64,000 nt of DNA from Actinomycetes bacterium (GCA_023336815.1 JAMBLJ010000036.1:13991-77990); one strand, 5' to 3'. Shown: positions 5,317-14,497, counted from the stretch's first letter. The notes: generated by a model from the letters alone, not told the origin. Translations and numbers: made by a program.

Positions 5317-6780
5317 ATGGCTTCCACAGCGCAGGTGAGCATCGTTGGGCTAGGTCCGGCGGGGATCGACCGCCTCGCAGCCGATGCGAAATCGATTTTG
5401 CTCGACCTCGATGCAACCGTGGTGCTCCGGACGACACATCATCCAACAGCTGCAGCGATCGCAACACAGCGCGATGTCACCACTTGCGACGATCTGTACG
5501 ACACGCTTCCCGAGTTCGATGAAGTCTATGAAGCGATAGCTGAGAGAGTTATCGTCGCCGCATCCCGCCGACGGGTCGTGTACGCCGTGCCAGGAAGTGC
5601 AGTGGTTGGCGAACGGGCCGTTGGAATGATCGTTGCCAGGTGCCGCGAGATCGGGATAGCCGTCGATGTATATCCAGGGCTGTCGTTCCTCGATCTCGCT
5701 TACATCGCTGTTTCTATCGATCCCATCACCGACGGTGTCCAGGTACTCGATGCGCGGGACCTACCCGACCCTCTCCCGCTTCATATCCCCACGCTGATTA
5801 CCCAGGTAGATTCGCCGCTTCGCGCATCGGATGTGTCTCTGGCCCTGACGCGCACACTCGACCCGGAGGCGCCGATCACGATACTCGATGCCCTCGGAGA
5901 CGATGATGAAGTCGTTGAGGTGACGACGGCTGCCGCACTGGCGAGATACGCCGGCGGATCGCGAACGACGGTCTTCGTTCCAGCGTCGTCCTCGGGGATT
6001 CTCGGATTGATCGCTACGAACAGGATCTTGCGCGAGACCTGTCCCTGGGATAAGAAGCAAACCCATCACACACTGCTCACACACCTCGTGGAGGAAGCCT
6101 ACGAAACGGCGGACGCGATCGCATCGCTCCCGGTTGGGGCACCTGAGGGCGATGCGGACTTCGGTGCATATGCAGAGGTCGAGGAGGAGCTCGGTGATCT
6201 GCTGCTTCAGGTCGTGTTTCACGCGACGCTTGCATCGGAGGCCGGAGCGTTCGACGTCGACGAAGTTGCTGAGGGGATACGACGCAAGCTCGTGGCACGT
6301 CATCCGCACGTATTCGGAGATGTGTCGGTTGAAGACGCCGACGAGGTACTTGCCAACTGGGAAGAGCTCAAGCAGAAGGAGAAGGGTCGCACAAGCCTCA
6401 TGGACGATGTACCCGTTGGGATGCCAGGGATCGCTAGAGCGACGAAAGTGCAGAACCGCGCGAGAAGCGTTGGCTTCGATTGGAGCGATATCGAAGACGT
6501 CGTAGACGTGTTGCGCGGTGAGATCGATGAACTCGTCGAGGCTGGTTCGGATGCTGAAGCGGTTGCTAGCGAGCTCGGAGACGTCCTCTTCTCCGCCGTC
6601 AACATCGGACGTCATCTTGGTGTCGATCCGGAGGTAGCGCTTCGCGGATCGGTCGATCGTTTCATGCAACGTTTTCGACTCATGGAGGAAGCGTTCATAA
6701 GCACAGGCACATCCATGCGCGAGGCATCGAACGAGATGCTCGAGAACGCGTGGGAGAATGCAAAGGAGACCCTGTCGTAG
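5317..6780 (+). CDS. mazG: MazG-family nucleoside triphosphate pyrophosphohydrolase with N-terminal tetrapyrrole-methylase-like domain (YabN-like)
   Basis: ATG at 5317 two nt after lipoprotein stop; N-terminal SIVGLGPAG methylase-like fold; tandem MazG EExGE-type helices (EELGDLLLQVVFHA, ELGDVLFSAVNIGRHLG, WEELKQKEKG). Confidence 0.8.
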   Translation: MASTAQVSIVGLGPAGIDRLAADAKSILLDLDATVVLRTTHHPTAAAIATQRDVTTCDDLYDTLPEFDEVYEAIAERVIVAASRRRVVYAVPGSAVVGERAVGMIVARCREIGIAVDVYPGLSFLDLAYIAVSIDPITDGVQVLDARDLPDPLPLHIPTLITQVDSPLRASDVSLALTRTLDPEAPITILDALGDDDEVVEVTTAAALARYAGGSRTTVFVPASSSGILGLIATNRILRETCPWDKKQTHHTLLTHLVEEAYETADAIASLPVGAPEGDADFGAYAEVEEELGDLLLQVVFHATLASEAGAFDVDEVAEGIRRKLVARHPHVFGDVSVEDADEVLANWEELKQKEKGRTSLMDDVPVGMPGIARATKVQNRARSVGFDWSDIEDVVDVLRGEIDELVEAGSDAEAVASELGDVLFSAVNIGRHLGVDPEVALRGSVDRFMQRFRLMEEAFISTGTSMREASNEMLENAWENAKETLS

Positions 6781-9977: not shown

Positions 9978-12038
9978 TTATTCCTTGGCAGCTGCCATGG
10001 CCTTGGCGACCAGATGCGAGGGGAGCTCCTGATAGTGGTCGAGTTCTGCGGTGAACCTGCCCCAGCCGTTGGTCAGCGATCTCAGATCGATCGCGTATCG
10101 AAGAATCTCGCTCGATGGGATATCTGCCTCGATCGTCTGGGAACCGTCGGACGCCGTCTGTGAGCCCTGCACAGCACCCCTGCGAGCGGCGATATCCCCC
10201 ATGACGTCACCCTGATACTGATTCGGAACAGTGATGGCGACTTTCGATACCGGCTCGAGAACGATGGGATTTGCACGGTCGAACGCCTCTCTGAAACCTG
10301 CACGCGCGGCGAGCTTGAACGCCATCTCGGAGGAGTCGACGGCGTGGTACTTCCCATCGTCGACGGTGATCTGGATATCCACGACTGGGTAGCCGTGGGA
10401 TCCTCCGTTCTCCATCGTCTCGATCGCGCCCTTCTCGACGGCGGGAATGAACTGTCTTGGGATGCTGCCGCCCTTGACCTTGTCCACGAACTCGAAACCA
10501 GCGCCCCGCTGACGGGGCGAAAGGATGAGATGGCATACGCCGTACTGCCCATGACCGCCCGACTGCTTCTTGTGTTTCCCATCGGCATCCGCGGTTGCGG
10601 TGATCGTTTCCCTGTACGCAACCTTCACCGGCACTTGGTCGACCTGGACACCGAACTTTCGGTCGAGCTTCTCAAGGGTAATCAGGAGATGCGTTTCGCC
10701 AAGACCGCTGAGGAGGGTCTGATGGGTCTCCTGGTTCTGTTCGACCTTCAAGGATGCATCCTCATCGATGATCCGCTGGAGGGAGGTTGACAGCTTGTCG
10801 TCGTCTGACTGGGTCCGTGCAACGATCGCGGTTGCGAGTACGGGTTGGGGTCTGTCGATGCCTGGGACCGTGACCGGGGCGTTTTTCGGGGCGAGCGTAT
10901 CGCCGGTCTTGGTGTCCAGCAGCTTCGCAGCGGCGATGATATCTCCGGCTGGTGCGGCCGACACGAGTGTTGTTTCCTTGCCGAACATCGTCGCGATCTT
11001 GGCGAGTCGTTCGTCCTGACCGGACCGGCCGTTGGTGAGGTGTGTCTCTGGCTTCAGCGTGCCCGACATGACCTTCATCAACGAGATCTGTCCGACATAC
11101 GCATCGGCGAGTGTTTTGAATACGAAGGCGAGGGGTTCCTGGTCAGGGTCCTTTGTTATCTCGATTTCCTCACCGCCTGCGAGAACTCTTGCAGGCGGTC
11201 GATCCTGGGGTGACGGCCCGATCTCGACGATGAAATCAGCGAGCCGGTCAACGGCGATCGGGCCGGTCGCAGAGCCACATACAACGGGGAAGACCGTTGC
11301 GTTCGCGATGCCGAGAGCCATGGTGGCCTCGAGCTCCTGCACACTCGGAATCGTTCCTTCCAGGTAGCCTTCGAGCAGATCGTCGTCTGCAACCACGATC
11401 CCTTCCACGAGGTTGTCGTGAACCTCATGCTCTTTGTCAGCGATCTCCTGGGGAATATCGACAACCTCGGCGGAGCCGGAGTCGTACACGTAGGCCTTGT
11501 CACGAAAGAGCCCAACAACCCCGCGGAAACTCGCCTCAGAGCCGATCGGCAGTTCGATCGGTGCGATACCTGCGCCGAACCTGTCGCGAAGCTCTTTGAG
11601 CGTCCGCTCGAACGATGCACGTTCCTTGTCGAGTTTGTTGATGAAGATCATGCGCGGGACCTGGAGCTTCTCGGCGATCCTCCATGCATACTCTGTCTGC
11701 ACCTCAACGCCCTCGACCGCACTTACGACGAATACGGCGAGGTCCGTGACGCGCAGAGCAGCGTGAACATCCCCAGAAAAATCCGCGTACCCCGGTGTGT
11801 CGATGAGATTGATCTTGTAGCCGAGCCACTCGAAGGGAGCCATTGCCATGGTGACGGTCATCTGGCGGGCATGTTCCTCAGGGTCGTAATCTGTGACGGT
11901 ATTCCCCGCCTCAACCGTTCCGATTCTTCCGATCGCACCGGCACGGAACAGGAGAGCTTCCGCAAGGGTCGTCTTGCCAGCACCGGAGTGACCAACAAGA
12001 GCGACGTTGCGGATCTTCTCAGGAGGGAAGACATTCAC
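9978..12038 (-). CDS. elongation factor G family GTPase (EF-G paralog)
   Basis: G1 motif GHSGAGKTT, DTPGYADF G3 motif, full EF-G domain series to C-terminus; likely start is GTG at 12038 preceded by AGGAG (12050-12046) rather than the ORF-track start at 12125 which abuts the tRNA. Confidence 0.85.
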   Translation of the reverse strand: MNVFPPEKIRNVALVGHSGAGKTTLAEALLFRAGAIGRIGTVEAGNTVTDYDPEEHARQMTVTMAMAPFEWLGYKINLIDTPGYADFSGDVHAALRVTDLAVFVVSAVEGVEVQTEYAWRIAEKLQVPRMIFINKLDKERASFERTLKELRDRFGAGIAPIELPIGSEASFRGVVGLFRDKAYVYDSGSAEVVDIPQEIADKEHEVHDNLVEGIVVADDDLLEGYLEGTIPSVQELEATMALGIANATVFPVVCGSATGPIAVDRLADFIVEIGPSPQDRPPARVLAGGEEIEITKDPDQEPLAFVFKTLADAYVGQISLMKVMSGTLKPETHLTNGRSGQDERLAKIATMFGKETTLVSAAPAGDIIAAAKLLDTKTGDTLAPKNAPVTVPGIDRPQPVLATAIVARTQSDDDKLSTSLQRIIDEDASLKVEQNQETHQTLLSGLGETHLLITLEKLDRKFGVQVDQVPVKVAYRETITATADADGKHKKQSGGHGQYGVCHLILSPRQRGAGFEFVDKVKGGSIPRQFIPAVEKGAIETMENGGSHGYPVVDIQITVDDGKYHAVDSSEMAFKLAARAGFREAFDRANPIVLEPVSKVAITVPNQYQGDVMGDIAARRGAVQGSQTASDGSQTIEADIPSSEILRYAIDLRSLTNGWGRFTAELDHYQELPSHLVAKAMAAAKE

Positions 12039-12125
12039 CAAAGGACTCCTTCTTCGATTGCCCCAAGAATACGCAAGTCCAGAGTGCTGAGCGAAGTTGG
12101 CTGTACGGTATTCTCGTGACAACAA

Positions 12126-12212
12126 GCCCGGGTGGCGAAATCGGCAGACGCGGCGGACTTAAAATCCGCTATCCGAAAGGATGTGTGGGTTCAAGTCCCG
12201 CCCCGGGCACCA
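12126..12212 (+). tRNA. tRNA-Leu (anticodon UAA)
   Basis: 87 nt incl. CCA; acceptor stem GCCCGGG/CCCGGGC, D-arm GCG..CGC, anticodon stem GCGGA/TCCGC with loop CTTAAAA (anticodon TAA), long class-II variable arm, T-arm GGTTCAAGTCC, discriminator A + CCA. Confidence 0.9.
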
Positions 12213-12234: not shown

Positions 12235-12591
12235 TCACGACGCGGGCACTCCGAGAAGGTCTCGTTTCGCCGCGAGGTACACCTCATCGGTGAGGTTCCC
12301 ATCGCTGTGCTCTGCATGGAGACGCTCGATCTCGGACACGAGGATGGAAGAGTGATCGACCGTGTGACGGATGCCTTTCCCGTACGGCGGTCTGATCGGG
12401 CGTACGGCGAAGTAGATCAACACTCCGACGTGTCCTGTGAAGATGACAAGCGCAGCCCACATCGCCTTCTTGATGATCGGAAGGTCGCGACGTCGTGTCA
12501 GGTCGATGAACGATGCAGCCCAGAGCAAGAAGATGGTGCCGCTGATGGCTATCGCCAGAAGAAACTCGACAGACACTCCGAAGACTTTCAT
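12235..12591 (-). CDS. small membrane protein, PLDc_N (phospholipase-D/nuclease N-terminal) domain + C-terminal SHOCT domain
   Basis: Two TM helices with conserved PLDc_N-like IDL..RR.....KA.WA..V...P..G...Y pattern; C-terminal SHOCT-like helix pair LHAEHSDGNLTDEVYLAAKRDLLG. Confidence 0.65.
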   Translation of the reverse strand: MKVFGVSVEFLLAIAISGTIFLLWAASFIDLTRRRDLPIIKKAMWAALVIFTGHVGVLIYFAVRPIRPPYGKGIRHTVDHSSILVSEIERLHAEHSDGNLTDEVYLAAKRDLLGVPAS

Positions 12592-12593
12592 GA

Positions 12594-12944
12594 TCAGCCC
12601 AGGATCCTTGTCTTCATGGTCGAAAATTCTTCATCTGTGATGGCACCGGAGTCGTGGAGGTCCGACAGCTTCTGTATCTGGGCGATTCGTTCATCGCTGA
12701 GCGTTGCTGCCTGTTCCTCTGCATAACGGGTGGCCGGATCCATTGGCATGGCAGTGTCATCGGGTCTCGTGATGAAGTAGAAGACCATTCCAAGGAGGGG
12801 AAGAAAGACGACAGCGATGGCCCAAAGTGCCTTGGCAAGTCCCGAGACGTCGTCGCGTCGTGCTAGGTCGATGAGGGTGAACACCCACAGGATCGTGAGT
12901 GGAACGAAGATGAGGAACAGGAAGAACAGATTCCAAAACGTCAT
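12594..12944 (-). CDS. small membrane protein, PLDc_N + SHOCT domain (tandem paralog)
   Basis: Same architecture as neighbour (LIDLARRDD...KALWAIAVVFLPLLGMVFYFITRP; C-terminal KLSDLHDSGAITDEEFSTMKTRILG); likely start MTFWNLFF at 12944 (ORF track 12977). Confidence 0.65.
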   Translation of the reverse strand: MTFWNLFFLFLIFVPLTILWVFTLIDLARRDDVSGLAKALWAIAVVFLPLLGMVFYFITRPDDTAMPMDPATRYAEEQAATLSDERIAQIQKLSDLHDSGAITDEEFSTMKTRILG

Positions 12945-12988
12945 GCGCCCTCCAGGTTGAGATCTTTCGCTCCCCATCGTACATCCGG

Positions 12989-14497
12989 GTGTGGGCGAGC
13001 GTAGGCAATCCCTTTACTCACGGACGCTGCGTGCCGAAAGAGTGTCATGGTGCATCCTCCTCACCGCTCATGCTGATTCTCGCCGCTCTCGCTGGATTGA
13101 CCGTTGTCAGCGCTGCGGTGCTGGGCTTCGTGTACCTCAAGCGACGCAGCTCCGATAGGCGGCTCGGCTATCTAGCCCAGTACGACCAACTCACAGGCCT
13201 CATCAATCGAACCCTCTTCCAGGACAGACTCAATAGCGCCATAGCGCGCGCCCGGAGAGAAGGTGGACTCGTCACCGTCATGTTCCTGGACATCGATGGG
13301 TTCAAGGACGTCAACGATCGCTTTGGCCATGCGATCGGAGACGAACTCCTCAGACAGATCTCGTCTCGCCTCGTTGCCTGCTTGCGTGAAACGGATACGG
13401 TCGCCCGTCTTGGTGGGGACGAATTCACCGTGATCCTTGAGGGCGGGCAGCGTGTTGAGGACGCAGGGCAGGTTGCCACGAAGATCCTCAAGACGATCGG
13501 GACGCCGTATCAGATCGGGAACAGGGAAGTTGTCATCACGACGTCGATCGGGATCGCCGTGTATCCCCTCGATGGCGATACATATCAGGATCTCGTGAAG
13601 GGTGCTGACACGGCAATGTACCAATCGAAGGCAGCCGGGAGGAACACTTACCAGTACTTCACACGAGCCCTTCGAGACCGCACATCGGATCGCATGGCGA
13701 TCATGGAGGATCTCAGAACCGCCATCGACGCTGGCGATCAGTTGCGTATCGAGTACCAGCCAAAAGTCGATATCGCCAGAGGTGTCGTCGTGGGTCTCGA
13801 GGCGCTGATTCGTTGGGAGCACCCGGAACGGGGTCGAATGATGCCAGGCCAGTTCATTCCTCTCGCTGAAGAATCAGACATGATCATCACCATGAGCGAG
13901 TGGCTCATCAACGAAGCGTGTCTCGACATGCGCTCGTGGATCGATAAGGGCATGAGACCCATGCGTGTTGCCGTGAACTCATCGGACAGGCTCTTTCGTG
14001 ATGCCAATCTCGTTGAGATGATCGCTATCGCACTCGCCGCTGCCGACCTCGATCCCAGACACTTCGAGGTCGAGGTGACTGAGCGAACCCTAACCCAGGA
14101 ATCAGAGCGTGCAGGGCGGGCGATAGAGAGACTCGCTGACATGGGTGTCAAGGTGTCGATCGATGACTTCGGCACGGGATATTCGTCGCTTCGTCAGATC
14201 CAGAGTCTGCCGATCGGGGCCCTCAAGATCGATGACTCATTCGTCCGAGAGGCCAACCGGCGGCCGGAATCAGTTGCGATCGCTGACTCGATCATCTCCA
14301 TAGCTCGATGTTTCGATCTCGAGGTGATCGCTGAGGGTGTAGAGACCCAGGAGGAGCTTTCGACGATGCGTGCTCTCGGTTGTAATCGGGTGCAGGGGTA
14401 TCTTGTGGCCAAGCCTCTTCCTTCTTCGGACGTACTTGCGTTCGTTGAGAGCTACGACAAGACGCTGTCCTTCCAGCCTGTCGACCGGGCCGAGTAG
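12989..14497 (+). CDS. membrane-anchored GGDEF-EAL protein (diguanylate cyclase/phosphodiesterase)
   Basis: Single N-terminal TM helix (LMLILAALAGLTVVSAAVLGF), GGDEF motif RLGGDEFTVIL with RxxD-like I-site region, EAL domain with EALIRWEHPERG and DDFGTGYSSL; true start may be the in-frame ATG at 13070. Confidence 0.88.
   Translation: MWASVGNPFTHGRCVPKECHGASSSPLMLILAALAGLTVVSAAVLGFVYLKRRSSDRRLGYLAQYDQLTGLINRTLFQDRLNSAIARARREGGLVTVMFLDIDGFKDVNDRFGHAIGDELLRQISSRLVACLRETDTVARLGGDEFTVILEGGQRVEDAGQVATKILKTIGTPYQIGNREVVITTSIGIAVYPLDGDTYQDLVKGADTAMYQSKAAGRNTYQYFTRALRDRTSDRMAIMEDLRTAIDAGDQLRIEYQPKVDIARGVVVGLEALIRWEHPERGRMMPGQFIPLAEESDMIITMSEWLINEACLDMRSWIDKGMRPMRVAVNSSDRLFRDANLVEMIAIALAAADLDPRHFEVEVTERTLTQESERAGRAIERLADMGVKVSIDDFGTGYSSLRQIQSLPIGALKIDDSFVREANRRPESVAIADSIISIARCFDLEVIAEGVETQEELSTMRALGCNRVQGYLVAKPLPSSDVLAFVESYDKTLSFQPVDRAE

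Follow-up and report, generated by a model that had tools for sequence, protein, structure and literature searches.

A conserved tandem pair of small PLDc_N-SHOCT membrane proteins divergent from a GGDEF-EAL gene in an Acidimicrobiia lineage

Proteins that combine a PLDc_N hairpin with a SHOCT domain are numerous, and none has a known role, in part because model organisms lack them. We analyzed a locus at which two such genes lie side by side, between a tRNA gene and a divergently transcribed gene for a GGDEF-EAL protein. The locus is in a 64,000-nucleotide stretch of DNA from an Actinomycetes bacterium (GCA_023336815.1, JAMBLJ010000036.1:13991-77990), referred to here as the window. What is this pair: an accessory module that landed beside a tRNA gene, a partner of the neighboring enzyme, a small pore, or something else? 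Of the readings that we weighed, we favor a membrane adaptor. Action on the GGDEF-EAL protein is the main specific alternative, and a pore or channel is the third.

Two small paralogous membrane proteins

A preliminary description, made from the sequence alone, reported two adjacent, tandem paralogous genes encoding proteins of 118 and about 116 amino acids, each with two transmembrane helices, a PLDc_N domain and a C-terminal SHOCT domain. We found both open reading frames as described. We refer to the upstream gene as B and to the downstream gene as A. The genes and their parts are as follows.

12594..12944, minus strand: gene B, a PLDc_N-SHOCT protein of 116 amino acids, identified by open reading frame, Pfam and homologues; stop codon at 12594-12596
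12765..12893, minus strand: PLDc_N two-transmembrane hairpin of B, residues 18-60, identified by Pfam, invariant columns and a weak TIGR04265 match
12600..12683, minus strand: SHOCT helix-turn-helix of B, residues 88-115, identified by Pfam, with the AF2 turn at G100
12948-12953, minus strand: Shine-Dalgarno sequence GGAGGG of gene B, preceding the ATG at 12944
12235..12591, minus strand: gene A, the divergent paralogue, 118 amino acids, identified by open reading frame and Pfam; stop codon at 12235-12237
12400..12528, minus strand: PLDc_N hairpin of A, residues 22-64, identified by Pfam and matched by PLDc_N in 26 of 27 A orthologues
12253..12345, minus strand: divergent SHOCT-like helix-turn-helix of A, residues 83-113, identified by BLASTP, hhalign, orthologues and AF2

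Gene B is the conserved, canonical paralogue of the pair. Its product matched both Pfam families, with 40.6 bits for PLDc_N (E 2.4e-10; cut-off 23.3) and 37.3 bits for SHOCT (E 2e-9; cut-off 27). Homologues of B were from 93% down to 34% identical to it and all about 116 amino acids long, and one of them is named 'SHOCT domain-containing protein [Acidimicrobiia bacterium]' in NCBI. Conserved residues in the hairpin, taken from the family alignment, are D26, R29/R30, S34-G35, K38, W41, P49, G52, Y56-F57 and R60-P61. The AF2 model of B (mean pLDDT 86.0) has helices at residues 3-29, 35-59, 70-98 and 104-115. The SHOCT helices in this model are 84-98 and 104-115, and the turn residue, G100, is invariant in the alignment.

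Read from its first in-frame ATG (12977), gene B would extend over 12594..12977 and encode 127 amino acids. We rejected this start. It is not conserved as a start, and it sits within a conserved -10-like box, TACGAT. The start that is kept across relatives in an alignment of nine loci is the ATG at 12944, giving a protein of 116 amino acids that begins MTFWNLF.

Two of the related loci, L035 (6001-6234) and L077 (1695-1952), have a copy of B that is cut down to the PLDc_N hairpin (78 and 86 amino acids, respectively) and has no SHOCT, next to an intact A. These short copies reflect either real loss of the domain or an assembly frameshift.

Gene A is more diverged. Its product scored 23.9 bits with PLDc_N, marginally over the cut-off of 23.3, and SHOCT was absent from the Pfam matches of the window's A at E<=0.1. 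SHOCT was matched directly by 8 of the 27 A orthologues (E<=0.01). The AF2 model of A (mean pLDDT 86.4) has transmembrane helices at residues 8-33 and 39-63, followed by a C-terminal helix-turn-helix (helices 83-96 and 102-113, pLDDT 88-96) in which G98 is invariant. SHOCT in A is too diverged for Pfam, and is recovered by profile comparison and structure prediction. That is, the assignment of both domains to both proteins stands for B by Pfam. For A, PLDc_N stands marginally, and SHOCT stands on hhalign, AF2 and the orthologues and not on Pfam. The product of A is 100% identical to a protein from an actinobacterial metagenome-assembled genome that is named 'PLDc N-terminal domain-containing protein' in NCBI.

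We compared A and B directly. The two proteins aligned end to end by BLASTP with 33% identity over 111 residues (E 9e-18). Profiles built from 27 orthologues of A and 31 orthologues of B aligned over their full length by hhalign, C-terminal helices included (99.9%, E 1e-32). Judged by these alignments, A and B are true paralogues. Direct repeats in the DNA of this region, spaced 365-392 bp apart, are due to this paralogy. We found no further member of the PLDc_N-SHOCT family within the window.

The AF2 models give A and B a common plan: two long hydrophobic helices with a loop of 5 residues between them, a poorly predicted, flexible linker of 10-20 residues between the hairpin and SHOCT, and the short, soluble helix-turn-helix (pLDDT of the SHOCT helices in the two proteins, 81-96). 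Hydropathy peaks agree with the models in placing two transmembrane helices in each protein, as had been proposed. There was no related solved structure by sequence (PDB search; only insignificant matches, such as calsensin with E 0.24) or by fold (Foldseek against the PDB; best E 1.3). We also considered a resemblance of SHOCT to an EF-hand, whose 12-residue loop has acidic or polar ligands at positions 1, 3, 5 and 12. We rejected it because, in the family alignment, position 1 of the loop varies and R, K or H predominates at position 3.

The two proteins differ in charge. The tail of B has on average 7.4 K/R and 13.3 D/E (net about -6), and that of A has 7.4 K/R and 8.0 D/E and is near-neutral. 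The N-terminal tail of each protein is free of K/R, and the inter-helix loop holds 2-3.5 K/R (3.5 in A versus 2.3 in B). Under the positive-inside rule, the loop charges could orient the proteins with the loop inside and with SHOCT on the outer side. The loop charges and the tail charges favor differing topologies. The SHOCT helices are weakly amphipathic, with low hydrophobic moments (0.15-0.31). These low moments do not appear to favor binding of the helices to the membrane surface, and we found no support for SHOCT as an amphipathic, in-plane membrane anchor.

An old operon on the core chromosome, beside a tRNA gene

We compared the window to 37 syntenic loci. Of these, 35 were among the 79 loci that we obtained by scanning a single genome from each species, and exact-protein look-up added two contigs. 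The gene order in common is ABC-F, GGDEF-EAL, the divergent B-A pair, tRNA-Leu(UAA), an EF-G-like gene, ppx, DUF501, ftsB/divIC, enolase and mazG. Identity to the window across these loci was 67-96% for the EF-G-like protein and 41-93% for B. The neighbors on the side of gene A are as follows.

12126..12212, plus strand: tRNA-Leu(UAA), identified by ARAGORN and Rfam (57.3 bits), convergent with gene A
9978-12125, minus strand: EF-G2-like elongation factor paralogue, on the far side of tRNA-Leu, a position that it holds clade-wide

NCBIfam gave the product of the elongation factor gene 855 bits with an EF-G subfamily model and 702 bits with the EF-G2 model.

We found two family genes in 29 of the 35 loci in which the pair can be judged; two loci end too early. 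In six loci (L009, L015, L031, L047, L050 and L051) there is a single family gene, A having been lost. In a neighbor-joining tree, the downstream copies formed one clade and the upstream copies formed another, together with the singletons. This topology indicates that the duplication is older than the clade of Acidimicrobiia genomes and that the singletons arose by loss of A. In the window, gene A starts (12591) 2 nt past the stop codon of B. In most of the related loci, the stop of B and the start of A overlap by 4 nt (ATGA or GTGA), an arrangement that indicates co-translation of B and A.

Purifying selection acts on both genes, and A is more relaxed than B. Compared to L001, the closest relative of the window, B had a dN/dS of 0.034 and A one of 0.205. 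The neighboring GGDEF-EAL and EF-G-like genes gave 0.021 and 0.025, respectively, and so B is constrained as strongly as housekeeping genes. In four other pairs of genomes, dN/dS was 0.09-0.24 for B and 0.14-0.41 for A.

The preliminary description took the tRNA gene to be a landing site for accessory DNA and the pair to be a membrane module that had arrived there. The pair does lie on the 3' side of tRNA-Leu, and its stop-codon end is 22 bp from the 3' end of the tRNA gene. The spot also accepts insertions. The tRNA gene is at most 151 bp downstream of the pair in 27 loci, and it is separated from the pair by 1.9-5.3 kb of unrelated inserted genes in L022, L025, L035 and L077. However, these insertions lie between the pair and the tRNA gene and leave the pair on the GGDEF-EAL side. 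The tRNA-proximal spot varies although the B-A pair does not. The pair occupies the same position in about 30 related genomes, including those in which the EF-G-like protein is only 67-84% identical, and its duplication predates the clade. Its GC content (0.55-0.59) is like that of the flanks (0.56-0.64), and tRNA-Leu, the EF-G-like gene and the eno-ftsB-DUF501-ppx genes are equally syntenic. There was no direct repeat of the 3' end of the tRNA gene, no integrase among the neighbors, and no match to phage or defense families apart from the generic SHOCT segment. With no integrase, att repeat or GC anomaly, we rejected a tRNA-associated genomic island on composition, repeats and synteny, and we regard arrival of the pair as an accessory module as very improbable. 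The pair is instead an old and conserved element of this Acidimicrobiia lineage's core chromosome.

The inserts between A and the 3' end of tRNA-Leu are at L022:670-2665, L025:6705-12020, L035:6575-8468 and L077:2325-4185. They contain squalene-hopene-cyclase-like, HATPase_c+DUF4325 and DUF3754 genes and several genes without a family. No integrase was seen in any of the four.

The neighboring GGDEF-EAL protein

On its other side, the pair faces a gene for a membrane GGDEF-EAL protein, as the preliminary description had noted. The relevant features are as follows.

13070..14497, plus strand: GGDEF-EAL protein, 475 amino acids, one N-terminal transmembrane helix (Pfam GGDEF 7.9e-51, EAL 6.2e-68)
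12945..13069, no strand: divergent intergenic region of about 125 bp between B-A and the GGDEF-EAL gene, from the nine-locus alignment
12976-12981, minus strand: conserved -10-like TACGAT, from the intergenic alignment of nine loci

The GGDEF, RxxD, EAL and DDFGTG motifs are intact in the translation, and the best NCBIfam matches of the protein are c-di-GMP phosphodiesterases. It is possible that the pair serves this enzyme as a dedicated membrane partner, contacting its transmembrane helix and tuning c-di-GMP turnover to the state of the membrane, although we think this rather unlikely. The GGDEF-EAL gene is the divergent neighbor in 32 of the 35 loci with a visible upstream flank. We also did the reciprocal test with 80 metagenomic relatives of the enzyme, of which 8 were at least 55% identical. 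The upstream flank is visible in six of these orthologues, and in all six it has a divergent family gene or two. The adjacency persists when the left flank is ABC-F, a histidine kinase or an acetyl-CoA-synthetase-like gene, and it outlasts the 1.9-5.3 kb insertions on the right side. The two transcription units have the conserved promoter region of about 125 bp in common, and the window's enzyme has a single transmembrane helix and no sensor domain. In addition, at a locus with a distant family member (L080), an unrelated PAS-PAS-GGDEF gene is directly upstream of that member.

Several results argue against a dedicated partnership. The supporting loci all belong to one lineage, in which the adjacency of tRNA-Leu and of the EF-G-like gene is no less constant. 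In L004, L018 and L020 the pair is kept without an adjoining GGDEF-EAL gene, and ABC-F directly abuts B. None of the 72 more distant relatives of the enzyme (40-46% identity) has a family member within 4 kb. The pair is present alongside the long, sensor-bearing form of the enzyme as well as the short one, and we found no correlation between the form of the enzyme and whether there is a pair or a single family gene. Finally, family members at 33-43% identity, from Solirubrobacterales and other Acidimicrobiales, adjoin unrelated genes. Their neighborhoods include DUF2252 with a HisKA_3 kinase, LPG_synthase_TM with a Na/H exchanger, ThiI with DUF389, SulP-STAS with DUF1269, and DUF6325. With at least nine types of neighborhood found, we rejected a universal conserved partner for the PLDc_N-SHOCT family. 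The preliminary description had proposed profiling of neighborhoods across genomes as the check on its reading, and the outcome is split: the neighbors are conserved within the lineage and are unrelated in distant members. Based on these comparisons, the link to the GGDEF-EAL gene is no stronger than inherited synteny in one lineage, and the evidence fits a co-regulated neighbor.

A more specific version would have B and A, as a hetero-oligomeric membrane accessory, sense the state of the membrane or its lipids through their cardiolipin-synthase-type hairpins and control the adjacent sensor-less enzyme. We consider this doubtful. If it were true, lipid-sensing control of a GGDEF-EAL protein would be the first function for stand-alone PLDc_N and SHOCT, as adaptors in c-di-GMP signaling.

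We searched the intergenic region for control elements. The invariant columns in the nine-locus alignment are TAC..TG and GGAGG. The tRNA was the sole Rfam match at E<=1, and we rejected a c-di-GMP riboswitch or any further cis-regulatory RNA element ahead of the pair. A simple scan for sigma-70 promoters and terminators gave two weak promoter-like matches inside coding sequence and no terminator.

The GGDEF-EAL protein also occurs in a long form of about 700-850 amino acids that has roughly 250 extra N-terminal residues between two transmembrane helices, a region absent from the window's protein that is presumably a periplasmic sensor. The long form is found in L011 (3850-6207, minus strand) and likewise in L012, L014, L016, L019, L024, L028, L030 and L034. 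In all of the short-form loci examined, a short upstream open reading frame precedes the GGDEF-EAL gene.

13047..13076, plus strand: upstream open reading frame of 9 codons, MVHPPHRSC*, whose stop codon overlaps the GGDEF-EAL start in ATGCTGA

Besides the window, these loci are L001, L002, L003, L005, L010, L025, L027 and L035. The open reading frame has 8-12 codons and the peptide is not conserved. A purine-rich GCCGAAAGAG-like box is present 6-8 nt before its start, and its stop codon shares bases with the start codon of the main gene (ATGCTGA or ATGA). This arrangement suggests possible translational coupling or leader-peptide control of the c-di-GMP enzyme.

Family membership and a possible adaptor role

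The PLDc_N (PF13396) plus SHOCT (PF09851) architecture was described by Eberhardt et al. 2013, who listed 80 such proteins of at most 173 amino acids that have no catalytic domain (PMC3581485). A and B have the same domains in the same order, are in the same size class, likewise have no catalytic domain, and do not differ from this class in any essential way. At 50% identity, our profile search found 5,037 representatives (E<=1e-3), mostly of 110-135 amino acids; with the limit set at E<=1e-10, it found at least 1,166 clusters. The family proteins, at about 110-135 amino acids, have no extra domain. A and B are ordinary members of an uncharacterized family and already bear PLDc_N and SHOCT names in NCBI. 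What is new relative to the described class is the ancient pair of translationally coupled paralogues and its lineage-wide position between the GGDEF-EAL gene and tRNA-Leu. Our additions are modest: the age and co-translation of the pair, its lineage-wide place beside a c-di-GMP enzyme, and the rejection of the mobile-element reading.

The statement in the preliminary description that neither domain has an established function agrees with the literature, including PMC3581485, and our literature search found no functional account of stand-alone PLDc_N proteins. SHOCT has been proposed as an oligomerization or binding module, although the isolated domain did not self-oligomerize in the sole published test (PMC3581485). 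SHOCT and SHOCT-like domains are predicted to be intracellular and membrane-proximal and to organize membrane-associated complexes (PMC11237479). In the PSP, Band-7 and Toastrack envelope-stress systems, SHOCT is likewise bi-helical and joined to a two-transmembrane segment (PMC11237479). In contrast to those systems, the window neighborhood has no PspA, PspC, Band-7, Toastrack or LiaF genes.

We found a second likeness in the hairpins. Pfam defines PLDc_N on the N-terminal segment of cardiolipin synthase. Residues 11-92 of B align with positions 8-84 in the model for cardiolipin synthase (ClsA; TIGR04265), at the two-transmembrane N-terminal anchor, with E 6e-4, although the score is only 18.9 bits against a cut-off of 290. 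Unlike cardiolipin synthase, A and B have no HKD/PLD domains. Because they lack these domains and end at about 116 amino acids, they cannot be lipid synthases.

YxlE of Bacillus subtilis is a stand-alone PLDc_N-type protein of about 60 amino acids with two transmembrane helices and no SHOCT, and it modulates a signaling protein encoded nearby. This small membrane protein, reportedly a negative regulator of sigma-Y, would set a precedent for a role in regulation, although the window pair has no nearby sigma or anti-sigma genes.

It is also conceivable, though improbable in our view, that A and B oligomerize as a small channel or pore of the holin or viroporin type, or as an ion-conducting two-transmembrane unit, with SHOCT as a cytoplasmic gate or assembly domain. 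The two transmembrane helices carry invariant charged, proline and glycine residues (D26, P49, G52 and R60). In other proteins, SHOCT is fused to ion-channel and CorA domains (PMC3581485), and distant family members often adjoin transporters (SulP, Na/H exchanger, DUF389). However, the conserved charges are at the helix ends and not on a pore-lining face, and the core-chromosomal setting and strong purifying selection on B also argue against this. PADLOC defense models gave no match for A or B. Matches to PHROGs were confined to the SHOCT segment, were to families of unknown function and included no holin. On these results we also rejected a phage, holin or defense origin. There are no phage or lysis genes nearby, and the neighbors are housekeeping genes.

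We favor, tentatively, a membrane adaptor: the pair could well be hetero-oligomeric, with cytoplasmic SHOCT contact modules, although our confidence in this falls somewhat short of even. The two-gene operon on the core chromosome encodes two anciently duplicated small inner-membrane proteins. Their hairpins are homologous to the N-terminal anchor of cardiolipin synthase, with conserved polar and aromatic residues at the membrane boundaries. B and A would be made together and would assemble into a non-enzymatic adaptor. Its hairpins would lie in the bilayer, and its SHOCT hairpins, probably cytoplasmic, would serve for contacts with proteins. Such an adaptor would have a housekeeping function, in membrane organization or stress. 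The two proteins are asymmetric: B evolves slowly and has an acidic tail, and A evolves fast, its loop being more basic and its tail near-neutral.

Hetero-oligomerization is suggested by the ancient, co-translated and asymmetrically evolving pair with complementary charges. Independent tandem duplications in L033 and L044 agree with this. A strict heteromer is not obligatory, since A has been lost in six lineages and the SHOCT of B is missing in L035 and L077. Based on these features, we infer that the proteins hetero-oligomerize, that SHOCT is cytoplasmic and that the pair acts as an adaptor.

The locus provides a concrete handle on this family: an old, co-translated pair beside a c-di-GMP enzyme across an uncultured actinobacterial lineage. 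If A interacts with B, or the two with the enzyme, this would give two widespread domains their first testable function. If neither interaction exists, the pair is one more operon of conserved hypothetical membrane proteins.

We noted some other arrangements among family members. The separate tandem PLDc_N-SHOCT pairs are at L033:2511-3296 and, in L044, near 5600-6354; the L033 copies group together, outside the clades of the window's A and B. The PAS-PAS-GGDEF gene in L080 (4250-5894, plus strand) is seemingly split by a frameshift between PAS and GGDEF, and the arrangement is missing in the closest relatives. Three very large proteins from the profile search, P0059 (1049 amino acids), P0065 (1074 amino acids) and P0119 (821 amino acids), have 9-10 matches to the SHOCT portion of the profile, that is, long arrays of SHOCT-like repeats.
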